Assembly: GCF_028368995.1 (NCBI RefSeq)
Contig: NZ_JAQNDL010000004.1
Location: 128,001-192,000, forward strand
Direction: 5' to 3'
DNA length: 64,000 nt
Source of the DNA: Nannocystis bainbridge
GTDB taxonomy: Bacteria; Myxococcota_A; Polyangia; Nannocystales; Nannocystaceae
Position numbers and translations under genes: made by a program. The first letter of the stretch is position 1; every line of letters begins with the position of its first letter. Positions 5,765 through 42,927 of this stretch are shown here, in pieces. A model generated the notes under the pieces. That model had not been told where the DNA came from. It ran no database searches and worked only from the letters and a program-made list of their open reading frames with translations.

Positions 5765-6436
5765 TCAGGCCTTGTTCTTGCCGGCCTTGATGGCGGGCTT
5801 GACGGCGGCGCGGATGGTCACGAAGCCGTTGTTGGGGCCGGGGATCGGGCCGCGCACGAGGACGAGGCCGCGCTCGGCGTCGATCTTGACGACCTCGAGG
5901 TTCTGCAGGGTGACGCGCTCGTGGCCCATGTGGCCGGTCATGCGCTTGCCGCGGTGGACGCGGCCGGGGGTCTTGCGGCAGCCGATCGAGCCGCCGTGGC
6001 GGAAGAACTCGTGCTGGCCGTGGCTGTTCTTCTCGCCCTCCATGTTGTGGCGCTTGATGACGCCCTGGTAGCCCTTGCCCTTGGAGGTGCCGGTCACGTC
6101 GACGCGGGTGCCTTCCTTGAACACGTCGGCGCCGAGCTGGCTGCCGACGGGGTGGGCGGCGAGCGCGTCGACGGGGACGCGGAACTCCTTGTGGACGTAG
6201 AAGGTGCCGACCTTGGCGGCCTCAGCGGCGCCCTTCTCGGGCTTGCTGGCGCGGTTGGCCTTCTTCTCGGCGAACCCGACCTGCAGCGCGTTGTAGGTGT
6301 CGCGCTCGGTGGTGCGGTGGGCGGTGACGGTGTTGCCGGTGACCTGCAGGACAGTGACGGGGACGCGGTCGCCCTCGTCCTTGAACACCTGCGTCATTCC
6401 AAGCTTTTTGGCGATGAGACCGATCTGGAAATTCAT
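5765..6436 (-). CDS. rplC: 50S ribosomal protein L3 family (stand-alone copy, not in an S10 operon context)
   Basis: MNFQIGLIAKKLGMTQVF..., VDVTGTSKGKGYQGVIKRH and HGGSIGCRKTPGRVHRGKRMTGHMG align with E. coli L3. There is no rpsJ/rplD/rplW neighbour. GGAGAG SD lies 6 nt upstream. Confidence 0.85.
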   Translation of the reverse strand: MNFQIGLIAKKLGMTQVFKDEGDRVPVTVLQVTGNTVTAHRTTERDTYNALQVGFAEKKANRASKPEKGAAEAAKVGTFYVHKEFRVPVDALAAHPVGSQLGADVFKEGTRVDVTGTSKGKGYQGVIKRHNMEGEKNSHGQHEFFRHGGSIGCRKTPGRVHRGKRMTGHMGHERVTLQNLEVVKIDAERGLVLVRGPIPGPNNGFVTIRAAVKPAIKAGKNKA

Positions 6437-6603
6437 CTGGCTCTCCAGGCCCGAACGGGCCGTGCTGTGGCTTTCTCCGGCGCGGCTTCCTTCACGTTGG
6501 AATCAGCGAAGAGCGAGGCGCCGCAGGGACGGGGAAGGTGCCCGCGATCGCGCCGGGCGTCAACCTGCGGGGGCGCCGGGGTCAGGCAGGCGGCGGATTT
6601 GCC

Positions 6604-7416
6604 TCACGCGCCGGCAGGCGCGGGCAGGCGGAAGAAGGCGCGGGCGTTGGCGCCGGCCTGCACGGCCAGGACGGCGGGATCGTCGCCGCGCACGCCGGCA
6701 AGGTGGGCGCAGGTGAAGGCGACGTTGGCCGGCTCGTTCTTGCGGCCGCGCACGGGCACGGGGGCGAGGTAGGGGGCGTCGGTCTCGAGCAGGATGCGAT
6801 CGGCGGGGCACAGCCGGGCCGCCTCGCGCAGGCCGTCGGCCTGGGGGAAGGTGGCGATGCCGGAGAAGGACAGGAGGTAGCCGCGCGCGAGCCACTGCTC
6901 GGCCTCGGCGGGGGTGCCGGTGAAGCAGTGGACGACGCCGCGGCGAGGCAGCGGCGGGGCGTCGTCGAGGACGGCGAGGGCGTCGGCGTGGGCGTCGCGG
7001 ATGTGGAGGACGAGCGGCTTGCCGAGCTCGCGGGCGATCTCGCGTTGAGCGGCCAGGGAGCGCTTTTGCGCCTCGGGCGGGCTGCGGTTGTAGTGGTAGT
7101 CGAGGCCGGTCTCGCCGACGGCGACGACCTTGGCGTCCGCCGCGAGGACGGCGATCTCGGCCAGAGCGGCGTCGTCGGCCTCGCTGGCGTCGTGCGGGTG
7201 GATGCCGACAGCGGCGAACAGGTGGGCGTAGGGGGCGACCAGGGCGACGGCCCGCGGGGCGCTGACCCGCGAGCAGCCGATGTGGATCATCTGCTCGACG
7301 CCGGCGTCGGCGGCCCGCTGGAGGGTGGCGCCGAGGTCGTCGCTCATCGGCGCGTAATCGAGGTGGCAGTGGGTGTCGACGAGGCCGGGGAAGCGAGGCG
7401 GGCGCGGCGAGGGCAT
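6604..7416 (-). CDS. tatD: TatD-family metal-dependent hydrolase (DNase)
   Basis: VDTHCHLD at the N-terminus, GETGLDYH, LHIRDA and ETDAPY TatD signature blocks. Confidence 0.85.
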   Translation of the reverse strand: MPSPRPPRFPGLVDTHCHLDYAPMSDDLGATLQRAADAGVEQMIHIGCSRVSAPRAVALVAPYAHLFAAVGIHPHDASEADDAALAEIAVLAADAKVVAVGETGLDYHYNRSPPEAQKRSLAAQREIARELGKPLVLHIRDAHADALAVLDDAPPLPRRGVVHCFTGTPAEAEQWLARGYLLSFSGIATFPQADGLREAARLCPADRILLETDAPYLAPVPVRGRKNEPANVAFTCAHLAGVRGDDPAVLAVQAGANARAFFRLPAPAGA

Positions 7417-7419
7417 AGG

Positions 7420-8082
7420 TCAGGGCTTCATGGCGAAGATGAGGAAGTACTGGTGCGGGAGGAAGTCCTCCTCGCGCTCGAGGGTGAAGCCGGCCTGGGC
7501 CAGCTCGGCGACGATGGCCTCGCGCGAGAGCCTGTACTTCGGGTCAGGTGCGAACTTCGGCGGCGGCTCGGCGTCGGGCCGGAAGTCGACGATCGCCAGG
7601 CGACCGCCGGGCTTGAGCGCGTCGTGGACGTGCTTGAAGTAGCGCACGCGGTCGCGCAGATAGGCGTAGGTGTTGGCGACGAACACCAGGTCGACGGCCT
7701 TCTCGGGCAGCGCGGGGTCGTCGTAAAAGGCGAGGTGCGGCTGGATGTTGGGGGTGCCCCAGCCCTCGCGCTGCGACTCGATGTGGGCCCGGAACTCGTC
7801 GTCGATGTCGACGGCGTAGACGGTGCCGGTCGGGACCTGCTGGGCCAGGCGGCGCGAGAAGTAGCCCGAGCCGGCGCCGATGTCGGCGATCACGGCGCCC
7901 TTGTCGGGGATCGGGAGGCTGCGCACGATCCGGTCGGGCATCTCCCACGACTCGCGGCCCTCGCTCTCCATGGTGGCGATCGCCGCCTTGGGGTCGTCGT
8001 AGTCCATGTCGGCGACGACCTCGCGCTTGCGACACCCGACGGCAGCGACCACGAGCACGGCGGCGAGGAGGGGGCGGTACAT
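7420..8082 (-). CDS. class I SAM-dependent methyltransferase, lipoprotein (AAVGC lipobox)
   Basis: ADIGAGSGYF motif I and LAIVDF post-I region. The stop lies 4 nt upstream of the tatD start, so the operon runs MTase, tatD, rplC, rlmE. Confidence 0.7.
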   Translation of the reverse strand: MYRPLLAAVLVVAAVGCRKREVVADMDYDDPKAAIATMESEGRESWEMPDRIVRSLPIPDKGAVIADIGAGSGYFSRRLAQQVPTGTVYAVDIDDEFRAHIESQREGWGTPNIQPHLAFYDDPALPEKAVDLVFVANTYAYLRDRVRYFKHVHDALKPGGRLAIVDFRPDAEPPPKFAPDPKYRLSREAIVAELAQAGFTLEREEDFLPHQYFLIFAMKP

Positions 8083-8170
8083 GTCCGTCAGCTTACGCGC
8101 GAGCGCGGCTCCGCGGGAAGTGGCGGCGGCCAGTTCGACGCCGGCCCGAGTCGGCTACACTCCGCGGCCG

Positions 8171-8974
8171 ATGGCTGAGCCCGGAACAGCGAGCGCGGCG
8201 CGCGTCCGCCAGGAAGCGAAGGGTCGCGAGCTGCTGGCCGATTCGGGCGTGCTGTGGAGCGCGCTGCCGGTGGAGTGGCCGCGCGAGGCAGAGGGCGGGT
8301 CGGCCGCGGCGCTGCCCGGGTGGGGCTGGCGGGTGCGTCGCTCGCTGGCGGCGCTGCTGGTGCGGCCGCGACGAAGCTTTCAACACGTCCATGAGCCGGT
8401 CGACCACGGAGCGGCGCTGCGGCTGCTGCTGACGGTGCGCTTGCCGTTGTGGGCGGCGCTGCTGGTCGCGCTGGGTGTTGCAGGCCCGACAGGCGCGGCG
8501 CTGGAGGGGATCCCGCTGTTCGACGCGCACCTGACCGAGGCGCTGTCGCTGTGGTTGTTGCTGATGGTGCCGGTCGGGGTGCCGCTGCTTTACGCGAGCC
8601 TGGGGGTCGCCACGCACGTGGCGCTGGCGCTGACCGGCGGGGCGCCGCGCTCGGTGGCGGCGACGATGCGGGCGGTCGGCTACGCGGTGGCGCCGGCGCT
8701 GCTCGGGGTGGCGCTGCTCGACCTGCCGCTGTTCCTCGGGGTGCTGCCGCTGGCGGCGTACCTCGGAGGGCTCGGGGCGCTGACGCTGCTGACGTTCGTG
8801 GTCGCCGGCAACGCGCTGACCGGGACCCACCAGATCCCGGCGATCCGCGGGTTCGTGGTGGCGCTGGTGCCGGCGGTGATGTTCGCGGCGACGCAGGTGC
8901 TGCGCGGGGTGCTGGCGCTCGGCGAGCTGCCGGGCTATGCGCCGCCGCCGGGGCTGCCGTACCTGGTGCCGTGA
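8171..8974 (+). CDS. Yip1-like polytopic membrane protein
   Basis: Five hydrophobic segments follow a soluble N-region. Start chosen at ATG 8171 (MAEPGT), downstream of the overlapping minus-strand MTase gene. Confidence 0.55.
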   Translation: MAEPGTASAARVRQEAKGRELLADSGVLWSALPVEWPREAEGGSAAALPGWGWRVRRSLAALLVRPRRSFQHVHEPVDHGAALRLLLTVRLPLWAALLVALGVAGPTGAALEGIPLFDAHLTEALSLWLLLMVPVGVPLLYASLGVATHVALALTGGAPRSVAATMRAVGYAVAPALLGVALLDLPLFLGVLPLAAYLGGLGALTLLTFVVAGNALTGTHQIPAIRGFVVALVPAVMFAATQVLRGVLALGELPGYAPPPGLPYLVP

Positions 8975-8975
8975 G

Positions 8976-9070
8976 GCTGTCCCTCGTGGCATGTCCGTGG
9001 GGGCATGTCCAAAGGGGCATGGGTTAAACGACATGTCGCCAGGGACAGGGCCCCGGCGACATGTCGTGGA
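8976..9070. repeat. GGCATGTCC/GACATGTCG tandem array (about 6 units) between convergent genes
   Basis: ccctcgtggcatgtccgtgggggcatgtccaaaggggcatgggttaaacgacatgtcgccagggacagggccccggcgacatgtcgtgg. Confidence 0.85.
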
Positions 9071-9092
9071 GAGCAGCCTGGCGGCCGCGCGG

Positions 9093-9803
9093 TCAGCCGG
9101 CCTTGGGCGCGGCGGCGGCGTCGGCGGGCACGCCGAGGACCTCCTGGATCGCGGTGTTGAGGCCGGCGAGGTCGGCCGGGGCGACGCCGGAGTACTTCAC
9201 GGCGTTGCGGCCGTCGGCGAACATGACGGTGCGGCTCTTGGTGATGTTGTACCAGCCGTCGAAGGCGTCGTTCTTGCCGCCCTCGTCGGCGGGCACGACC
9301 AGCGGGATGGTGACGCCGAGCTCGGCGCGCAGGGCCTTGACCTTGGCCTCGAGGGCGGCGCGGTCGGCCGTCGGGGTGGTGGCCTTGCCGTCCTTGATGT
9401 CGGTGATGACGGCGAACGCCTTGAGCTTGTCCTCGCCGTACTTCTGGACCAGGGCGTCGAGGTTCTTGAGGTCGTTCTTGAAGGCCTCGTCGTCGATGGT
9501 GCCGACGGCCATGATCTTGGGGCTGCCGCCGAACTTGCAGACCTGGCAGTACTTCTCGCCGCTGTCGCAGTTGACGATCTCGAACGGCTTGAACTTGCCG
9601 CCGACCCCGAGGCCGCTGTCGGCGAGCACGGGCGCCTCGGCGGGCTTGGCCGGGGCGGCCTCGACGGCTTTGTCGGCGGGCGCGGGCGCGGCCGGCTTGG
9701 CGACCTCGGCGGGGGCAGGCTTGGTGGCCGCCTCTCCGCCGCAAGCTGCGGCGAGGATCACGGCGAGGGCGAGGCTCGAGCGAGTGGTGAGCATGGCGGC
9801 CAT
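9093..9803 (-). CDS. hypothetical lipoprotein (LAAACGG lipobox) with a CxxC-containing region
   Basis: Signal MAAMLTTRSSLALAVILAAACGG, a Pro/Ala/Lys-rich linker, then a globular domain with CDSGEKYCQVCKF. Start at 9803 (alternatives at 9794 and 9821). Confidence 0.6.
   Translation of the reverse strand: MAAMLTTRSSLALAVILAAACGGEAATKPAPAEVAKPAAPAPADKAVEAAPAKPAEAPVLADSGLGVGGKFKPFEIVNCDSGEKYCQVCKFGGSPKIMAVGTIDDEAFKNDLKNLDALVQKYGEDKLKAFAVITDIKDGKATTPTADRAALEAKVKALRAELGVTIPLVVPADEGGKNDAFDGWYNITKSRTVMFADGRNAVKYSGVAPADLAGLNTAIQEVLGVPADAAAAPKAG

Positions 9804-34079: not shown

Positions 34080-34098
<19 letters not shown>
34060..34098. repeat. GTCTCC/GGACATGTCC repeat pair between prs-like and nadE
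   Basis: aatgtctccggggacagggtctaaaggacatgtcctgtg. Confidence 0.75.
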
Positions 34099-35023
<925 letters not shown>

Positions 35024-35027
<4 letters not shown>

Positions 35028-36892
35028 GCGGGGGAGGAAGAGTACCCCTCGGCGAGCGCGTTGGCGACCTCGGTATAGGCGTAATCGCTGACGCGTTCGT
35101 CGATGCGCATGCGCAGCAGCGCCTTGCTGCGGCAGGCGGCGGCGAAGAAGAACGCGCGATCGTCGGCGCAGGCGCGCGCGAGCGCGGGGACGGCGGCCCA
35201 GCGATCGAACAGGCGCTGGCAGATCCGCCGCACGCACGGCCACAGCTCGGCCTGGTCGGGCCCGCCGGCGTCTTCGATCCAGGCGATGACGGCGGCGAGG
35301 TGGGCGTGCACGAGGGTGTGGAGCAGCTTGCCCTGGGCCTCGGCGAGGTCGGCGGTGAGGGTGAAGGAGTCGGAGGCGAGCGCGGGTGCGTGACCGGCGG
35401 CGGCGAGCCGGCCGCGGTGGAGCCGGATGCCGCCGAGGTCGCGCACGATGAAGCCGCAGGGGCGGCCGGCGTGGACGAGCAGGGTGTTCTGCAGGTGGGC
35501 CTCGAGGGCGACGCCGTGGGCGGTCAAGAGGCGCAGGGCCGGCGGGACGAGGACTTCGAGGTAGTCGCTGAAGAAAGCGGCGAGGCGGGCGCGCAGGTCG
35601 CCGGGGTAGTCGGCGGCGAGCTCGCGCACGAGGAGGTCGCCGCCGGGGCGGCGCTCGCCGAGCGCGGCGCAGACGAGGAGCTGCGGGCTGCGCGAGGGGA
35701 CATGTCCGTGAGGGAAGGTCCTCGGGGACATGTCGTCGGGGGCATGTCCGGAGGGGAATGTCTCAAGGGACATGTCGGCGGGGCGGGACGGAGCGAGGCG
35801 CGGGTCGGCTGTCGCGAGGGACAGGTCGGCGTGGAGGTCGCGGGCGAGGGCGGCGGGGTCGGGGCGCAGCACGACGCCGAGCTGGCCGGCGCGGTCGCCG
35901 TGGCGCGGGTGCATGCCGGCGGCGGCCACGTCGGCCTGGATCCGCAGGCCGCGGCGCGTCTCGGGATCGGCGGCCTGGATCGCGGCCAGCAGGGCGGCGA
36001 TCGGCGGGCCGTTGTGGACCGAGGCGGGCGAGACCTGGCGGCGCGCGCTGGTGGTGTGGATGTCGACGGCGAGCTTGAGGTGCAGGGCCGGGGCGGCGAG
36101 GGCGACGGTGCGCAGGCTCAGGAGGGCGCGGGCGGGCAGCGGGGGCAGGTCGACGGGGTGGGCGACGCTGCGCCACAGCGGGCCGAGCAGGCGCGGCAGG
36201 CGGCGCAGCTGGAGGGCGTGCACGGGCAGGCGGACCAGGCCGGCGGGCGCGGGCGGGAACAGCTCGCGGGCGAGGTCGGCGTAGAGGTCGGGCGCGGCGA
36301 GCTGGGCGTGGTCGGCGGCGAGGTCGACGGCGTGCACGGGGGCCTGGGCCAGCAAGTCGGGGCCGTGGCGCAGGTTCTCCCAGGCGCGCAGGCCGAGCCG
36401 GGTCTTGCTCATCGGGTGCCAGGGGTGACCGTCGACGACGAGGTTCTCGGGGTCGAGCGGGGCGGGCCACGCCTGGCCTTCGGAGCATGTCCGATGGCGC
36501 AGGTCGGCGACGAGGCGGGCGAGGGCGAGGTTCCAGCGGCTGTCGTCGAGCTCGCGGGCGAGCCGGGCGCGGGGGGCCGGGGCGAGCGCGGGTAAGAGGC
36601 GCGGGAGGAGCTGGGGGAGGTCGGGCAGGTCGCTGGCTTCGAGGTCGGGGGCGTGGAGCTCAAAGGCGCGGCGGCGTCGCAGCGGGAGACTCAAGGAACA
36701 TGTGCGAAGGGACATGTCCTGAAGGTCAAAGGCGAGGAGCCGCTCGCGGGCGCAGGCGAGGAGCAGGCGGGCGCCGATGGCCTGGGTGGCGGCGCGCCAG
36801 TGACAGGCGAGGTCGGCGGGCTCGGGCCGGACGCGGAAGGCGAGGGGGAGGGCCCGGGCGGCGAAGGCGAAGAAGCGGTCGCGCTCGGGCAC
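35024..36892 (-). CDS. IucA/IucC-family (NRPS-independent siderophore synthetase-like) protein with FhuF-like C-terminal domain; carries in-frame GGACATGTCC repeat insertions
   Basis: [28 protein letters not shown] (S-x-R-T/R ATP loop) and [10 protein letters not shown] (H-x-Q-N) resemble NIS-synthetase motifs. The repeat arrays at 35696-35830 and 36692-36725 lie inside the reading frame (peptides [27 protein letters not shown] and DMSLRTCS). The true start is uncertain. Confidence 0.45.
35696..35830. repeat. GGACATGTC tandem array (about 7 units) lying in-frame inside the IucA/IucC-like CDS
   Basis: gggacatgtccgtgagggaaggtcctcggggacatgtcgtcgggggcatgtccggaggggaatgtctcaagggacatgtcggcgggg...gggacaggtcggc. 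Confidence 0.85.
36692..36725. repeat. GAACATGTG/GGACATGTCC repeat pair within the 5' region of the same ORF
   Basis: aggaacatgtgcgaagggacatgtcctgaaggtc. Confidence 0.7.
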
Positions 36893-37048: not shown

Positions 37049-37756
37049 TCAGCCGGCGCGCCAGTGGGCCACGGCGAGCTCGCCGAGCATGAGGGTGGCG
37101 GACAGGAGGAGGACGGCGGCGATCCAGCGGCGCAGGCTGTCGGGGTCGAGGCTGCCGGTGCGGCGGGCGCCGAGGTTGGCGCCGAGCAGGGTGAGCGGGG
37201 TGACGATGGCGAAGGCGGTGAGGTCGACCTGTCCTTGGAGGAAGGTGGCGACGCCGGCCGACAGCCCGGTGACGGCGCCGATCGCCATGTTGGTGCCGAT
37301 GGCCACGGGCGGGGCGACGCGGGCGTAGCGGATCATGGCGGGCAGGCGCAGGCTGCCGAGCAGGAGGCCGACGAGGCCGGAGATCGCGCCGAGCACGGCG
37401 CCGACGACGACCTCGGCGAGGACGGCGAAGGTGCGCGAAGGGACATGTCCGGAAGGACTGGTCGGATCGGGCGGGCGGCGCAGCATGCTGGCGCCGGTGA
37501 GCAGGAGGACGCCGGCGATGACGGCCTTGAGCAGGCGCGCGTCGACGCTGCCGGCCCAGCGAGCGGTGGCGAAGGCGGCGAGGGCGGAGGGGAGGCCGAC
37601 GCTGGCGAGCAGCCACAGGTCGACGCGGCCGTCACGGGCGTGCCGCCAGGTGCCGGTGAGGGTGCCGGCGGTGGAGATGGCGAGGCTGGTGGCGGCGCCG
37701 GCGACCGGGCTGCCGAGGACGTAGACGAGGAGGGCGACCCGCAGCTGGCCGAGCAC
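37049..37756 (-). CDS. TauE/SafE-family sulfite/anion exporter membrane protein; GTG start as tracked, but a hydrophobic helix is encoded in-frame upstream without a canonical start
   Basis: Two 3-4 TM halves separated by a loop that contains an in-frame GGACATGTCC repeat (RRPPDPTSPSGHVPSRTF). Upstream in-frame codons encode EILALALIALVSFGLSYIGATVGLV after a TAG at about 37846. Confidence 0.65.
   Translation of the reverse strand: MLGQLRVALLVYVLGSPVAGAATSLAISTAGTLTGTWRHARDGRVDLWLLASVGLPSALAAFATARWAGSVDARLLKAVIAGVLLLTGASMLRRPPDPTSPSGHVPSRTFAVLAEVVVGAVLGAISGLVGLLLGSLRLPAMIRYARVAPPVAIGTNMAIGAVTGLSAGVATFLQGQVDLTAFAIVTPLTLLGANLGARRTGSLDPDSLRRWIAAVLLLSATLMLGELAVAHWRAG
37436..37465. repeat. GGACATGTCC repeat unit pair in-frame inside the TauE central loop
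   Basis: gcgaagggacatgtccggaaggactggtcg. Confidence 0.8.
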
Positions 37757-38430
37757 GAGCCCGACGGTGGCGCCGATGTAGCTGAGGCCGAAGGAGACCA
37801 GCGCAATGAGCGCTAGCGCGAGGATCTCGGTGGAGCGCAGGCGCCGACGCTAACACGCGTGACGGGGGAGTGAGCCTGGAGGGATCGCCGCGCGGTGGCG
37901 CGAGGGCGCGCGGTCGCGGAGGACCACGAGAGAGGTGGTGCGGGGGCGATGCGTGAGGGGGCCGCTGCGAGGGCTCGGTGATGCTCTCGCGCGGTGCTGT
38001 CTCGCGGATGCGGCGGCGATCGCAGGGGACGAGTCGACGGCGATGGCCGGGCAGTTCGAGGCAAAGTGGGTGGCACACGCGGCGCGGCGATGTTGGCGAG
38101 GGCCTCGCTGTCGCGGTGTCGATGGCCGCGTCGCGGATGTGGCGGGGATGGTGCTGGTGGCGGTCCGGCGAGTCGTGGCGATGCTGCCCTGCGTGTCGGA
38201 TGGTTTGCGAGGCGCGAGCGATCGCTTCGTCGGGCCTCGGGCGTGCGGGCTGTCGGAGGGCCGCGAGGATCGGCGGTGTGAACGTGAAGGTTCGTTCATC
38301 ACGGTGCGCTGGGTCGGACGGTGATGGTCGGCTCGAGTCGGCGAAGGTGTCGCGGGCGAAGGTGTCGCGGGCGAAAGGCGGGGCGGCGCTTGACAGGCGG
38401 GCGGGCCGGGGCGGACGCTGCGGCGGCGTG

Positions 38431-39216
38431 ATGGAGCGCGGGGACACGACGGCGGCGGAGGCGCTCGCAACGGGGCTTCCGGGGTCGCCGCGGCCGCGCT
38501 GGGTGGTGATTCACTGGACGCTCGAGGCGCTGGGGCTGGTGCGCGCGATCGCGGCGGCCGACGGCTCGCCGGAGCTGACGCTGATCGGGCCGGCGGCCGC
38601 GGACGAGGTCGCGGGGGCGCTGGCCGAATTGCCCGAAGGACATGTCCACAAGTACTGGCAGGGCTCGGCGAGCGGCGGGGTCGAGGCGCTGGCGCGCTTC
38701 TTCGCCGAGACGGCCGGGCTGCCGGCGGCCGACGCGATCATCGTGCTGCCGCTGCGCGGGCACGGCGAGACCGACGCGTTCTCGCGCCTGGTGTGCACGG
38801 CGATCCAGCGGGCCTGCAAGGGCAAGCCGCCGCACGTGGTGGTGGCGGTCGAGGACCCGGAGGCGACCCACGAGTTCGAGGGGCTCGGGGTGGCGACGAT
38901 CTTCTATCCGGGCTTCCTGCGCGCGGCGCTGCTGGCCCACGCGTGCGTCGATCTGGGGGCGTTCCGCTTCATGCTGGCGCTGCTCGGCGGGCGCCTGCGG
39001 GTCGAGACCTGGCCGGTGCCGCCGGAGCTGCGGGCGGGGACGTTCCGCGAGGCGTGCCTCGGGGTGGAGGTCGATCGCCGCGGGCGGCCGGTGACGCTGA
39101 TCGGGCTGTTCGCGCCGGCCGAGGGCGGGCAGGACTCGATGCTGCTGAGCCCGCCGCCGGGCCGTGCGCTGCGCGACGCGAGCGCGCTGCTGGTGCTGAC
39201 GGGAGAGGCCGAGTGA
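38431..39216 (+). CDS. stand-alone RCK (TrkA-N/TrkA-C-like) regulatory protein
   Basis: Rossmann-like alternation (RWVVIHWTLEALGLVRAIAA...DAIIVLPLRG...HVVVAVEDPEA) followed by a small beta domain. Sits immediately upstream of the channel gene. Weak SD. Confidence 0.4.
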   Translation: MERGDTTAAEALATGLPGSPRPRWVVIHWTLEALGLVRAIAAADGSPELTLIGPAAADEVAGALAELPEGHVHKYWQGSASGGVEALARFFAETAGLPAADAIIVLPLRGHGETDAFSRLVCTAIQRACKGKPPHVVVAVEDPEATHEFEGLGVATIFYPGFLRAALLAHACVDLGAFRFMLALLGGRLRVETWPVPPELRAGTFREACLGVEVDRRGRPVTLIGLFAPAEGGQDSMLLSPPPGRALRDASALLVLTGEAE

Positions 39217-39330
39217 GGCGAGGGGCGCGTGCGGCCCGCGCGGGGGGCACGATCGGCAGCGCTGCCGGCGAGGCGGAGCGGGTCTTCGGCGAGGCGGCCG
39301 CTGTGACGCGGCTCGCAGGAGGATCTGGCT

Positions 39331-39400
39331 TTTGGGGCATGTCCGTGCGGACATGGCTGATCGGGCCTGTACTCCTGGGCATGTTCCTGCAGACAGGTGC
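39331..39400. repeat. GGGCATGTCC-type repeat units overlapping the start codon and signal peptide of the channel gene
   Basis: ggggcATGtccgtgcggacatggctgatcgggcctgtactcctgggcatgttcctgcagacaggtgcc. The ATG of the CDS is the CATG of a repeat core. Confidence 0.6.
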
Positions 39401-41663
39401 CGCGCGGGCCGGCGAGCCGATCACGATCCGGTTCGGGTCGGGGGCCAAGAAGGGCGGGTTCGACGTGACCGCCCACGCGCTGGCCGAGGTGGTGCGCGGC
39501 GAGGGGCGAGTGACGATCGCGCCGGAGTCGACGCGGGGCTCGTGCGAGAACGTGCACAAGCTGCTGTCGGGCGAGCTCGACGCGGCGCTGGTGCAGTACG
39601 ACGTGGCGGCCGAGGCGTTCAAGGCCGGGCAGGCCGACGCGGCGGCGGTCGACAGCAAGACGCCGCGCGGCGGGTGGATGTGCAAGCTGTCGCCCGAGGA
39701 GGCCGACAAGGCGGAGCTGCGGGTGATCGCGGCGGTGTCCGACGCGGCGGTGCACGTGCTGGTGCGCCGGCCGGTGCGCCTCGACGAGTTCACCGACATC
39801 GGCCGCGAGCCGCTGTTCATGGGCAAGGACGGGTCGGGCAGCTACGAGACGGCGAAGGTGATCCTCGGCGCGGCCGGGCACACGGCGGAGCATCTGCCGC
39901 TGTTCATGGGCACCGCCGACGAGGCGCTGGCGGCGATGAGCCGGCGCGAGCTGCTGACGATGCTGCGGACCACCGAGCCCGGGCACGCGGAGATCGGCGC
40001 GGTGCTGGCGTCGGGCCTGGCGACCCTGAACCCGCTGCCGGAGGAGGTGCTGAACCGGCTGATCGACGGCTATCCGTATTACCGGATCTGCCCGATCGAG
40101 CCCGGGACCTACGCGGGGCTCGAGTTCAGCATCCCGACGGTGTGCGTGAGCTCGGTGGTGCTGGTGGCGACGCCGCGCCAGCGGCTGGACGACGAGGGCT
40201 TTTTGGCCGACCGCCGGCTCGCGGTCGAGGCGATGATCGTCGGGCTGCAGAAGCTGGCGCGCGAGGAGCAGCACGCGAGCCTCGGGGTCCGCGTCGAGTG
40301 GCGCGGGTTCGCCGAGCGCGAGCCGATCCCGCTGCACCCGGTGGCGGAGGTGCACGAGACCCGCGAGCGGCGGACGGCGTGGCTGCAGGCAGGGGCGGCC
40401 GCGGCGGCGCTGGCGGTGGTGCTGCACCTGGTGCGCCGGGCGCTGCGGCGGCGGCGGGTCCCGGGGGCCGGGATCGAGACCCAGCTGTCGAACCCGCTGG
40501 TGCCGTTCGCGGCGTTCGCGTGCGTGGTGACGCTCTCGACGTTCATCGTCTGGTCTTTGGAACATGACTCGAACGCCAGGTTGCGGACGCTGAACGACTC
40601 GTTCTGGGAGATGAACACGTTCGCCACCGGCAACTTCACCACCGAGACGCTGAAGACGCCGACGGCGCGGGTGGTCGGGGCGGCGGCGACGATCCTCGGG
40701 CTGGGGCTGCTGGCGTGGTTCACGGCGACGCTCACCAACATCTTCGCGCAGGAGCAGACGCGGCTGTGGCGGCGGCTGAACCGGCACCTGGTGGTGCTGA
40801 ACTTCCGCGAGGACATGCTGCCGCTGATCCGGCTGCTGCGCAGCCCGGGGCCGACGCGCCACCGGCCGCTGCACGTGGTGGTGTCCGACGCGCTGCCGCG
40901 GCGCGTGCGGCTGCAGCTGGCGCGGGTCAAGGCGCTGACGATCCACAACGCCAACCCCGAGGTGCCGGAGGACCTGGCGGGGCTGCGGCTGCCGCGGGCG
41001 TCGCGGGTGATCGTGCTCGGCGACGGCGAGGCGGCGGGGGCCAGCTACGATCCGCTGCGGATCGCCCGCGCGGTCCATCAGGCGTGCGCGCGCGACCCGA
41101 TCGGCGGCGGGCAACGGGCGCGGCCGCTCGGGGTGGCGGCGACTTCGGTCGAGATCGCCCGGACCGCGCCGGCGCTGCCGGTGACGCTGGTCGAGACGTC
41201 GGAGGGCGAGCGCGACGAGGTGTTCTCGCCGTTCGCGGCCTGGCTGGTGCCGGTCGACTGCCAGACGCTGGCGCACCGCTGGCTGGTGATGGCCTGCCGC
41301 GACCGCGCGTTCGCGGAGCTGTTCAACCGGGTGGTCGCGTTCGCCGACGACAACGCCGAGGTCTACACGGCGACGGCTCCGACCTGGCTCATCGGACAGC
41401 CGTGGCGATCGGTCCGCCGCGCGCTGCTCGAGGTCCAGGGGCGCGGGGGCGCGGTGCCCCTGGGGCTGTATCGCACCGCCGATCCGGGCGGCAAGACGCC
41501 GGTGGGCGGGACCTCGCACGCGGAGCTGCGGCGGCGGCTGATCGTCAATCCGCGGCCGGACGAGCCGGTGGCGCCGGGCGACCTGATCGTCGCGCTGTGC
41601 GAGGATGAGGCGGACCTGGTGCGCATCGTCGCCGAGAGCCGCAAGGCCGTGCCGATCGGCTGA
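39339..41663 (+). CDS. TAXI-type solute-binding domain fused to a 2-TM ion-channel pore and tandem RCK domains
   Basis: Signal MSVRTWLIGPVLLGMFLQTGAARA. TAXI-like blocks (ITIRFGSGAKKGGFDVTAHALAEVV...SCENVHKLLSGELDAALVQYDVAAEA...FMGKDGSGSYETAKVILGAAG), then TM1, pore helix plus filter FWEMNTFATGNFTTE, then TM2, then two RCK-like domains (HLVVLNFRED..., RVIVLGDGEAAG...). Confidence 0.6.
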   Translation: MSVRTWLIGPVLLGMFLQTGAARAGEPITIRFGSGAKKGGFDVTAHALAEVVRGEGRVTIAPESTRGSCENVHKLLSGELDAALVQYDVAAEAFKAGQADAAAVDSKTPRGGWMCKLSPEEADKAELRVIAAVSDAAVHVLVRRPVRLDEFTDIGREPLFMGKDGSGSYETAKVILGAAGHTAEHLPLFMGTADEALAAMSRRELLTMLRTTEPGHAEIGAVLASGLATLNPLPEEVLNRLIDGYPYYRICPIEPGTYAGLEFSIPTVCVSSVVLVATPRQRLDDEGFLADRRLAVEAMIVGLQKLAREEQHASLGVRVEWRGFAEREPIPLHPVAEVHETRERRTAWLQAGAAAAALAVVLHLVRRALRRRRVPGAGIETQLSNPLVPFAAFACVVTLSTFIVWSLEHDSNARLRTLNDSFWEMNTFATGNFTTETLKTPTARVVGAAATILGLGLLAWFTATLTNIFAQEQTRLWRRLNRHLVVLNFREDMLPLIRLLRSPGPTRHRPLHVVVSDALPRRVRLQLARVKALTIHNANPEVPEDLAGLRLPRASRVIVLGDGEAAGASYDPLRIARAVHQACARDPIGGGQRARPLGVAATSVEIARTAPALPVTLVETSEGERDEVFSPFAAWLVPVDCQTLAHRWLVMACRDRAFAELFNRVVAFADDNAEVYTATAPTWLIGQPWRSVRRALLEVQGRGGAVPLGLYRTADPGGKTPVGGTSHAELRRRLIVNPRPDEPVAPGDLIVALCEDEADLVRIVAESRKAVPIG

Positions 41664-41775
41664 CGCGGCCGCGCGCAGCGAGGACGCGGCCGCGCCCGCG
41701 AGGGGCTCGATTGTGGCTTCAAAGCCACGGCCGGCCCGGTTGACGGCGAGGGGCGGTGAATCGTATTCGGGCGAG

Positions 41776-42927
41776 ATGCGGTCCCGTCGTGTCGTCCTCG
41801 CGTTGTCTTCCGCGCTCGTCGCCGGCTGTTATGCGGGTGGAGCGCAGATGACCGAAAGTACAGGTGAGACCGGGACCGCGAGCGAGGCGACGACGGGCGG
41901 TCCGGGCGAGACGACGGTCGAGCCCGCGACCGGGGACACGGGCGCGCCGACGACGGCGGCGACGACGACGACGACCGGGGTGGGGCCGACGAGCACGGAG
42001 CCGGCGGGGCCGACCAGCACCGGGCCGGACGCGACGACCGCGGAGCCGGAGACGACGCTGGGGCCGGAGACGACCGACGCGACCACGAGCGAGACCACGA
42101 CCGGGGCGCCGATCGACCCGGTGGCGGAGGTGTGCGCGCGCTGGACGGCGGACCGTTCGGACATGTCCGAAGGGACATGGAGCGGGGCGGTCGCGGGCTG
42201 TCAGGCGGGCGACACCGGGGCGCCGGGCCGCGACAACGCGCTGCGGCTGATCAACCTCTATCGCTGGCTGGCCGGGCAGCCGGCGGTCGGGCACGACGCG
42301 GGCCTCAACGCCAAGGCGCAGCAGTGCGCGCTGATGATGCAGGCCAACGGGCAGCTGTCGCACAGCCCGGGCATGGGCTGGGACTGTTACACGGCCGACG
42401 GGGCGCAGGCGGCGATGAACAGCAACATCTCGTCGACGCCGGGGGTGGTCGCGGTCGACCTCTACATGGTCGACCCCGGCAACGCGACGACGTTCGGCCA
42501 CCGGCGCTGGATCCTCTCGAACAAGCTCGGTCCGGTCGGGCTCGGCTCGTCGGCGGTCAACTCGTGTATGTGGGTGATCGGCGGGCAGGGCGGCGGCGAT
42601 GCGGCGTGGACGGCCTGGCCGCCGCCCGGGGTGGTGCCGATCGAGGCGCTCCACGTGCCCGAGGTGCCGTGGGCCAACGTCGACGAGACGGGCTGGACGA
42701 TCCAGAGCGACAGCCTCGACCTCGGCGGGGCGCAGGTCTCGATCACCGAGAGCGGGATCGAGATGCCGGTCAAGCTGACGCCCCTGATGGGCGGGTTCGG
42801 CTCGGCCAGCGCGATCGCCATGACGCCGCAGGGGTGGGAGTCGGAGGCGGGCAAGACGTACGCGGTGCAGGTGAGCGGGGTGCCGCAGCCGTTCAGCTAC
42901 GAGGTGCAGGTGGTCGGCTGCGAGTGA
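41776..42927 (+). CDS. CAP/SCP/PR-1-domain lipoprotein with Thr/Pro-rich linker
   Basis: Lipobox LVAGC, about 100 aa of T/G/P/E repeats, then a CAP domain (GHRRWILSNKLGPVGLG, NSCMW). An in-frame GGACATGTCC pair sits at 42151-42180 (RSDMSEGTWSG). Confidence 0.7.
   Translation: MRSRRVVLALSSALVAGCYAGGAQMTESTGETGTASEATTGGPGETTVEPATGDTGAPTTAATTTTTGVGPTSTEPAGPTSTGPDATTAEPETTLGPETTDATTSETTTGAPIDPVAEVCARWTADRSDMSEGTWSGAVAGCQAGDTGAPGRDNALRLINLYRWLAGQPAVGHDAGLNAKAQQCALMMQANGQLSHSPGMGWDCYTADGAQAAMNSNISSTPGVVAVDLYMVDPGNATTFGHRRWILSNKLGPVGLGSSAVNSCMWVIGGQGGGDAAWTAWPPPGVVPIEALHVPEVPWANVDETGWTIQSDSLDLGGAQVSITESGIEMPVKLTPLMGGFGSASAIAMTPQGWESEAGKTYAVQVSGVPQPFSYEVQVVGCE

Follow-up and report, generated by a model that had tools for sequence, protein, structure and literature searches.

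A TAXI solute-binding domain fused to a predicted P-loop pore and an RCK domain in Nannocystis bainbridge: a candidate ligand-gated cation channel with a co-encoded soluble RCK paralog

Pores gated by solute-binding proteins (SBPs), such as the ionotropic glutamate receptors (iGluRs) and GluR0, and pores gated by RCK domains, such as MthK, BK and CASTOR, are both textbook systems. For MthK, Jiang et al. are said to have reported in 2002 that an internal start at M107 yields its soluble RCK. Binding proteins of the TAXI family work with, and in some genomes are N-terminally fused to, a non-TRAP membrane protein, as for Bordetella BP0403/GltS and the Lachnospiraceae fusions, and this TAXI-GltS pairing of 2025 is the nearest precedent for a TAXI domain with a non-TRAP partner (PMC12344293). 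Here we describe a locus in which the partner appears to be an ion channel. It lies in a 64,000-nt stretch of the Nannocystis bainbridge genome (contig NZ_JAQNDL010000004.1, positions 128,001 to 192,000; hereafter the window, ~72% GC), where a single gene encodes a TAXI domain, an extra transmembrane (TM) helix named TM0, a predicted pore-loop (P-loop) pore and an RCK domain, directly preceded by a gene for a soluble RCK protein.

Our favoured reading, to which we give a probability of roughly 55%, is that this pair encodes a cation channel of four subunits, with a ligand sensor in the periplasm and a ring in which four RCKs are tethered and four are soluble. All of the modules are known and the architecture is solid; the combination and its topology were not found described. 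Literature searches covering TAXI, TM0, a normal-orientation pore, RCK and a split ring returned no TAXI/SBP-channel-RCK fusion, and Ger et al. (2010), on prokaryotic GluR relatives, mention none of TRAP, TAXI and RCK. The first-pass annotation of the window had proposed a periplasmic SBP, a P-loop pore, a cytoplasmic RCK and a co-encoded soluble RCK. As an architecture this stood, whilst its number of RCKs, its number of TM helices and its NaK-like filter did not. The predicted features of the gene pair are as follows (GC3, GC content at third codon positions; AF2, AlphaFold2; pLDDT, its model confidence score; aa, residues).

38431..39216, + strand: soluble stand-alone RCK gene (261 codons; no TM helix, no signal peptide; coding GC3 from ~38400-38430)
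39213..39216, + strand: GTGA, the stop of the RCK gene overlapping an in-frame GTG of the channel frame
39339..41663, + strand: TAXI-TM0-pore-RCK (channel) gene, 774 codons plus TGA (open reading frame (ORF) list, GC3, 123 full-length homologs)
39339..39410, + strand: Sec signal peptide, aa 1-24, with an A-R-A cleavage motif, read from the sequence
39420..40358, + strand: periplasmic TAXI-family solute-binding domain, aa 28-340 (TIGR02122, PF16868, 1US4, VcGluP 8S4J)
40377..40439, + strand: TM0, aa 347-367 (hydropathy peak 1.80; helix 2-32 of the AF2 C-terminal model, pLDDT 86-90)
40440..40490, + strand: short cytoplasmic TM0-M1 loop, aa 368-384 (positive-inside count, conservation)
40497..40565, + strand: M1 outer helix, aa 387-409, ending in the invariant EH of a conserved LEHDSN stretch (hydropathy, AF2)
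40590..40625, + strand: pore helix LNDSFWEMNTFA, aa 418-429 (AF2 helix 79-90, pLDDT above 90; aligns with the KvAP pore helix)
40626..40658, + strand: selectivity-filter loop TGNFTTETLKT, aa 430-440 (conservation)
40659..40775, + strand: M2 inner helix, aa 441-479 (AF2 helix 102-140; invariant GLG.LAWFTA)
40788..41336, + strand: RCK N-lobe, aa 484-666, a six-strand Rossmann fold with an aF-aG helix pair
41358..41645, + strand: RCK C-terminal lobe, TrkA_C-like, aa 674-769, ending in an NP...GD...A.EDE motif

The channel gene is a single coding sequence. GC3 was 0.92-1.00 in every interval sampled from 39354 to 41573, whereas the base composition of the same open frame upstream (38394-39300) was that of another frame. 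The SBP and channel parts are therefore not separated by a frameshift and belong to one gene starting near 39339, and the 774-codon ORF reported in the first-pass annotation is uninterrupted across 39339-41663 (+). A frameshift dividing the SBP and the channel into two genes, which that annotation had named as a possible refutation, was looked for in the GC3 profile and not found; a gene-fusion artefact was likewise rejected on this profile together with the full-length homologs. The latter comprise 123 cluster representatives with 44-90% identity, whose annotation never goes beyond "TAXI family TRAP transporter solute-binding subunit", and because databases give all of them this label the channel family is hidden by its annotation. 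For the C-terminal 435 aa the closest relatives were Nannocystis sp. RBIL2 (94% identity) and N. punicea (93%). There is a little doubt over the start codon. We prefer ATG 39339 because the 122 non-coding-like nucleotides at 39217-39338, between the GTGA and this ATG, have low GC3, and homolog annotation agrees; GTG 39213 is the alternative. The GTGA at 39213-39216 is a putative relic or alternative start for translational coupling.

The N-terminus was read as a Sec-type signal peptide (MSVRTWLIGPVLLGMFLQTGAARA, followed by GEP), with an N-terminal h-region and then A-R-A, and the homologs begin with signal peptides of the same kind, in keeping with the Sec signal claimed earlier. The next domain scored 85.4 bits against TIGR02122, just over the cutoff of 84.35 (aa 14-336), and 81.6 bits against PF16868 (E 9.8e-23; cutoff 27). 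The Thermus glutamate/glutamine-binding TAXI protein 1US4 aligned end to end (E 3.5e-15; aa 10-337 against 4-304 of 314), and Vibrio VcGluP (8S4J) matched with E 1.7e-8. A complete TAXI domain is thus present as first described, past the curated HMM cutoffs and along the whole of 1US4, and the absence of an SBP fold, the other outcome held to speak against the idea, is contradicted by TIGR02122 and PF16868. PDB 1US4/1US5, the TAXI structure nearest to window positions 39339-40370 among those solved, was deposited as 'putative GluR0 ligand binding core', and from this title the resemblance between TAXI proteins and iGluRs was noted as early as 2004, long before TAXI-pore fusions were sought.

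Ligand-pocket residues of VcGluP (PMC11574862) were mapped onto the query through the query-8S4J alignment. Two were kept, S75 as Ser and Q93 as Gln inside a conserved ALVQYD, whilst Y45 was changed to Phe, Y200 corresponded to Arg, and the acidic residues around the ligand amino group were lost (E125 to Ala, D157 to Ser). With S75 and Q93 kept, the predicted pocket looks intact; with E125 and D157 lost and Arg at Y200, it is probably not glutamate-specific. That its ligand is anionic is a reasonable guess and nothing more. No TRAP permease was found among the window neighbours or in the gene tables of two other loci carrying the pair (L001 and L004).

Instead of the TM helix, pore loop and TM helix reported earlier, we found three TM helices (TM0, M1 and M2) and a pore helix. 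In the AF2 model TM0 and the helix after the TAXI domain run together without a break (residues 341-371), and TM0 would carry the chain from the periplasm to the cytoplasm. An Arg cluster, RRALRRRR (aa 366-373), stands at the start of the TM0-M1 loop, which ends in a conserved (L/I)E(G/T)QLSNP leading into M1; in the alignment of the channel C-terminal family (A1), E41, L44, N46, P47, P50 and F51 are invariant. M2 is one long helix running on into the RCK domain. With the TAXI domain on the outer side of the membrane and the Arg cluster on the inner, the added TM0 leaves the pore oriented as in ordinary K channels, the P-loop entering from the periplasmic side and the C-terminus lying in the cytoplasm, and the topology read from the signal peptide and the RRALRRRR cluster is self-consistent. 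An iGluR-like topology was rejected, since the TAXI domain is contiguous (aa 28-340) ahead of all TM helices and the P-loop is periplasmic. The likeness to iGluR/GluR0 drawn in the first-pass annotation accordingly survives as a functional idea but not as a topology: TAXI is intact and N-terminal, TM0 is added and the pore is not inverted.

Conservation across the whole protein peaked in the pore (LEHDSN, SFWEMN.FATGNF and GLG.LAWFTA), which argues that the P-loop is functional. An AF2 model of the C-terminal part, built from an 88-sequence alignment including distant relatives, had a pLDDT of 87.4 and a predicted TM-score of 0.77, with pLDDT above 90 throughout M1-P-M2; from a first run with 17 close homologs (pLDDT 56) the secondary structure alone was used. 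The top Foldseek matches of the model in the PDB were full-length MthK chains, aligned across both pore and RCK for ~390 columns (E 4e-13), followed by Slo2.2, BK, GsuK and the CASTOR ring. Model and matches both point to a pore-loop topology, the lack of which would have spoken against the original proposal, with M1, a re-entrant pore helix and loop, and M2 arranged as in tetrameric P-loop channels, and with an RCK fold attached to the inner helix as in channels of the MthK/BK/GsuK type.

The pore string first reported, FWEMNTFATGNFTTE, was located at aa 422-436. Its F-A-T-G-N-F is invariant across the clade (P0248 has FSTGNF), and the filters of distant relatives are mostly x-S-G-(L/F)-E-D, with a few canonical TTGYGD or TVGYGD. 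The filter register was anchored on the pore-helix Trp and on a post-filter T-x-x-(G/A)-(K/R), which put G-N-F at KcsA 76-78 (MAFFT against P0359) or 75-77 (HMMER against KvAP). The GNF of NaK, at KcsA positions 79-81, lies 2-4 residues further on. As the register differs from both flanks, the NaK-like filter of the first-pass annotation is unsupported and the likeness is a coincidence of letters. The TVGYG signature of K+ selectivity is not present in the query filter, and a channel with FATGNF in its place probably lacks strict K+ selectivity and may conduct monovalent cations, divalent cations or both; selectivity is not assignable from sequence, although strict K+ selectivity is unlikely. 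The filter of CASTOR, AD(S/A)GNHA, contains an Asp265 that is essential for conduction and that its authors suspect of underlying Ca2+ selectivity (PMC6697748). It is closer to the query than that of NaK, with a common Gly-Asn-aromatic core, and the position of CASTOR Asp265 is Ala in the query.

Where two RCK-like Rossmann domains had been counted, there is one RCK, made up of an N-lobe and a C-lobe and aligning as a whole to RCK1 of DMI1/CASTOR. In the AF2 model M2 is followed by strands bA to bF with their helices, the aF-aG pair, and a C-lobe of four strands and two helices. The N-lobe is without GxGxxG and carries a poorly conserved insert at ~aa 585-615; the C-lobe matches TrkA_C weakly, with pLDDT mostly above 90 and 70-80 around aa 710-729. 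The family profile aligned to DMI1 in three pieces, all within RCK1, including the pairings of RNHivilnf with RNHVLILGW and of llvNP..v..GD.llalaeDe with KIVINPDDNYVLRDGDEVLVIAEDD. The nucleotide-binding GxGxxG is absent from the bA-aA segments of both the channel (VVLNFREDML) and the soluble protein (VVIHWTLEAL). A single RCK per chain strengthens the case for a soluble partner, because the four subunits of a channel would fill only half of an eight-RCK ring.

The candidate partner is encoded directly upstream, as the first-pass annotation had noted, at 38431-39216. In hhalign the soluble-RCK family (alignment A4; 46 sequences, without Pfam annotation) matched the channel C-terminal family (A1) with a probability of 96.9% and E 1.9e-10, the 230 aligned columns taking in the entire RCK, and the only PDB sequence matches of the soluble protein were DMI1 (1e-4) and CASTOR (0.013), both in RCK1. 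The soluble protein is thus a free-standing paralog of the RCK in the channel chain, diverged to ~20% identity. Scanning a single genome for each species, with the flanks mapped by local HMMs, gave 38 fusion loci, all from Nannocystaceae or related Polyangia metagenome-assembled genomes. The soluble RCK gene lay directly upstream on the same strand in every distinct locus with enough flank (36/36, including the window and the metagenomic L004), and in 33 of these its TGA overlapped an in-frame, stop-free ATG or GTG of the channel frame (ATGA/GTGA). In genera other than Nannocystis the signal peptide follows directly on this start, and the gene calls of the pair overlap by 4 bp in L001 and L004.

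We further examined the occurrence of the fusion beyond this clade. A search of 1.84 billion representatives with a profile of pore and RCK gave 295 proteins at E<=1e-3, 17 of them below 1e-30. Amongst 60 more distant relatives that were scanned, TAXI was detected in 50, Slo-like_RCK in 53, Castor_Poll_mid in 40, TrkA_N in 35, Ion_trans_2 in 13 (best match 1.1e-6) and Lig_chan in three (down to 1.6e-6). Their layouts comprised proteins of ~350-400 aa with a pore and one RCK, of ~700-775 aa with TAXI, pore and one RCK, and of ~980-1050 aa with TAXI, pore and tandem RCKs, plus a single 617-aa relative with a pore and tandem RCKs. A minimal member matched DMI1 (1.3e-11), CASTOR (3e-10) and BK/MthK (~5e-10), and one relative matched the GluN1 pore (9e-4). 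A search that started from the alignment of the distant family led back, for the most part, to the Nannocystaceae clade. As the distant loci, of which four were read, span 40-70% GC, the fusion extends beyond myxobacteria.

The family also differed in where a second RCK might come from. In 47 of the 58 distant relatives in the modelling alignment (A6), the conserved His of strand bA is preceded by a Met at a distance of 6-8 residues (motif MPxxLxxH; e.g. P0264, P0297 and P0367). This Met falls within a few residues of the MthK M107 position, which suggests an MthK-like internal start giving a soluble RCK. None of 30 sequences from the FATGNF clade has this Met, and the same clade, including its outlier (P0246, locus L004), has the separate RCK gene. 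No separate RCK gene was found near the ~1000-aa tandem-RCK relative of L003, the only such locus read, and no annotated RCK neighbour at the loci of two single-RCK distant members. This complementarity between internal Met, tandem domains and separate gene provides the strongest indirect case for a hetero-octameric ring completed by the upstream protein. More broadly, and at somewhat less than even odds, TAXI-pore-RCK proteins may be widespread, unrecognised bacterial ligand-gated cation channels (~300 clusters at 50% identity), in which an entire N-terminal binding protein would act through an accessory helix to gate a pore of normal orientation, 'SBP plus pore' would be an invention independent of iGluRs, and the RCK ring would be built in three interchangeable ways (internal start, tandem fusion or separate paralog gene).

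Other arrangements were seen within the family. Members of ~1100 aa (P0011, P0014, P0017 and P0035) have two tandem TAXI domains before TM0-pore-RCK, the extra 310-360 residues coming directly after the signal peptide; such loci include L028 (1877-3883; Enhygromyxa salina SWB005), L034 (2057-3931; Plesiocystis pacifica) and L041 (2039-3880). On a 12-kb contig of JGI 3300063071 (L044; genes at 6055-7467 and 8164-9275), the TAXI-pore-RCK protein P0273 is encoded ~0.8 kb from a large terminase, with a ParB/N6-N4 methyltransferase gene also nearby, and from these neighbours may sit on a prophage or phage-like element. Searches with tblastn against plasmids and phages returned isolated TAXI domains only, amongst GenBank phages a weak TAXI-like match in the Ralstonia jumbo phage RsoM2USA.

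Under the favoured reading, export of the N-terminus would place the TAXI clamshell in the periplasm and TM0 would return the chain to the cytoplasm. M1, the pore helix and filter, and M2 would form a standard tetrameric P-loop cation pore, with M2 running into the single RCK, and the upstream gene would supply four soluble paralogous RCKs for an eight-RCK gating ring of the MthK/BK/CASTOR type (a 'split RCK1-RCK2'). This proposed hetero-octamer can be likened to the ring of BK and to the tandem RCK1/RCK2 ring of CASTOR (PMC6697748). Two inputs would then be possible. Closure of the TAXI domain on a periplasmic ligand would be passed through the rigid TAXI-TM0 helix to the conserved TM0-M1 loop, predicted to lie beside the bundle crossing and the RCK N-lobes, whilst a cytoplasmic ligand would act on the ring; since both RCKs lack GxGxxG, that ligand is most likely a cation. 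Of this account, the integrity of the gene, the identity of its domains, the logic of the topology, the fold, the paralogy and the synteny are shown by the data, whilst the tetramer and hetero-octamer, conduction, selectivity, the two ligands and the route of coupling are inferred.

A different division of labour is raised by a neighbour that is almost as constant as the RCK gene:

37049..37756, - strand: TauE/SafE (TSUP) permease gene, divergently transcribed (PF01925, 2.7e-33)

It lies divergently upstream of the RCK-channel pair in 33/36 loci, including the distant metagenomic L004, and its adjacency may be a clue to what TAXI binds (for instance an anion of the sulfonate or sulfite type) or may reflect regulation in common. 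The pore could then be a housekeeping K+ or cation channel for efflux or uptake, gated by its RCKs only, like MthK, Kch or YugO, with TAXI serving another transporter such as the TauE/TSUP permease or forming a periplasmic cap. The missing TRAP permease fits such an arrangement, as do the substitutions in the pocket (E125 to Ala, D157 to Ser, Y200 to Arg), which would suit an anionic ligand of the TSUP kind, and the service of TAXI proteins to, and fusion with, non-TRAP partners (TAXI-GltS, PMC12344293). However, TauE is absent beside L003, L043 and L044, the most distant of the TAXI-pore-RCK loci that were read, which nevertheless keep the fusion, and TAXI is found on the channel in 50 of the 60 distant relatives sampled. 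The conserved partnership is therefore that of TAXI with the pore, not with TauE, and the link between TauE and the TAXI ligand is kept as a lead only. A covalent fusion in one chain, with the rigid helical connection of the model, is also what coupling would predict. We consider gating by the RCKs alone unlikely.

Several points nonetheless count against a TAXI-gated channel complex. No Pfam ion-channel model was significant on the query (Lig_chan reached 0.044 and 14 bits against a cutoff of 30.8), the query profile reached KvAP weakly (0.064), and the link to Ion_trans_2 is transitive, through the distant relatives, and otherwise structural, through prediction. The filter has a single Gly and is without the essential Asp of CASTOR, such that the predicted pore could be degenerate. 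The monomer model says nothing on oligomeric state or RCK-RCK pairing. To our knowledge there is no characterised precedent for gate movement by an N-terminal SBP acting on a peripheral helix. Within the genus Nannocystis the two genes are ~30-160 nt apart, so that translational coupling looks looser than in other genera, and the conserved TauE neighbour is left unexplained by the channel-complex model.

Some of these same points would suit a non-conducting transmembrane sensor, whose pore has degenerated to a scaffold and which relays TAXI occupancy to an RCK assembly signalling elsewhere. FATGNF has lost the TVGYG glycines along with the CASTOR Asp, channel Pfam models are non-significant, and neither RCK has the nucleotide motif. 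The P-loop and inner helix are, however, the most conserved parts across homologs 44-90% identical, which is hard to explain for a mere scaffold, and the pore helix and loop drawn by AF2 are canonical, at pLDDT above 90. CASTOR conducts with a similarly non-canonical xGN-aromatic filter (PMC6697748), and conserved genes that might act as partner or output are limited to the RCK and TauE genes. Such a sensor seems to us distinctly improbable.

Binding proteins normally hand their substrates to membrane partners, which raises SBP-dependent uptake, with TAXI passing a small cationic or zwitterionic solute or a metal ion to the pore for facilitated diffusion under RCK regulation from inside. The unusual filter would be in keeping with this, as would the tandem-TAXI relatives (L028, L034 and L041), which resemble the multi-SBP fusions known from transporters. 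Yet the TAXI ligands named in the literature consulted are organic acids and amino acids (PMC11574862), too big for a P-loop cation filter and of the wrong charge, and the fold matches are all to ion channels. We regard uptake of this kind as very unlikely, and return to a TAXI-gated channel as the preferred account of the gene pair.

The remaining neighbours have no obvious link to the channel, and the window further encodes DUF1579 and M28 proteins.

35024-36892, - strand: IucA/IucC-FhuF siderophore-synthetase-like gene
34080-35243, - strand: PRPP-synthetase-like gene with a long N-terminal extension
41605-42927, + strand: secreted CAP-domain protein with a Thr/Gly-rich linker

The window is also rich in a palindromic decamer, GGACATGTCC, with 41 copies (up to 1 mismatch) against 1.8 expected, often paired exactly 14 bp apart. 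Examples are 4965/4979, 5007/5021, 10776/10790, 17378/17392, 28434/28448, 35698-35777, 38638-38647, 39335-39355 and 44700/44714, in intergenic DNA as well as within high-GC3 ORFs (the IucA/IucC, TauE and soluble-RCK genes). The start codon ATG of the channel gene falls inside one copy, which makes a 7+7 hairpin, CATGTCCGTGCGGACATG. The decamer looks like a short REP/MITE-like repeat, and explains why 'MSxRTCPxGHV' peptides recur in spurious ORFs.

Should the pore be gated by the TAXI domain, the family would represent a second natural route from a binding protein to a ligand-gated channel, with a topology unlike that of glutamate receptors, and would be relevant both to the origins of iGluRs and to the design of synthetic SBP-gated channels. 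The range of TAXI partners is extended beyond TRAP and GltS transporters, and the internal Met, tandem RCKs and separate paralog gene offer a clean comparative system for RCK-ring assembly. For the social, predatory myxobacteria with this gene pair, a cation channel gated by a nutrient or a signal could link membrane potential to the chemistry outside the cell.

The closest sequence relatives of the channel are RCK channels of the CASTOR/DMI1 type; CASTOR, POLLUX and DMI1 are cation channels of the plant nuclear envelope. CASTOR has four TM helices, lacks an SBP and carries RCK1 and RCK2 in tandem on a single chain, whereas here the second RCK is a separate gene; Castor_Poll_mid gave no match to the query at E<1. 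In BK, Slo2 and Slo3 both RCKs are likewise in one chain, against one tethered and one free in Nannocystis. MthK obtains its soluble RCK from the internal start M107 of the same gene, not from a separate, diverged paralog gene, and has a TVGYGD filter; it has no extracellular domain, signal peptide or TM0, all three of which are found in the query channel. A precedent for a hetero-ring is given by Thermotoga TM1088A/B (3L4B), a solved two-subunit RCK ring in which both subunits are soluble. NaK of Bacillus cereus, a non-selective 2-TM P-loop protein with GNF after the second filter Gly (TVGDGNF), is without SBP or RCK. On the side of the binding protein, TAXI is paired with an elevator-type Na+/glutamate symporter in TAXI-GltS and with a predicted RCK-regulated ion-channel pore in Nannocystis. 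With GluR0 and the iGluRs the system has in common the idea of a sensor of the periplasmic-binding-protein fold covalently joined to a tetrameric P-loop pore; theirs is an SBP_bac_3-type domain split (S1/S2) around an inverted pore with no RCK, and that of Nannocystis is an intact N-terminal TAXI domain combined with TM0 and an RCK.

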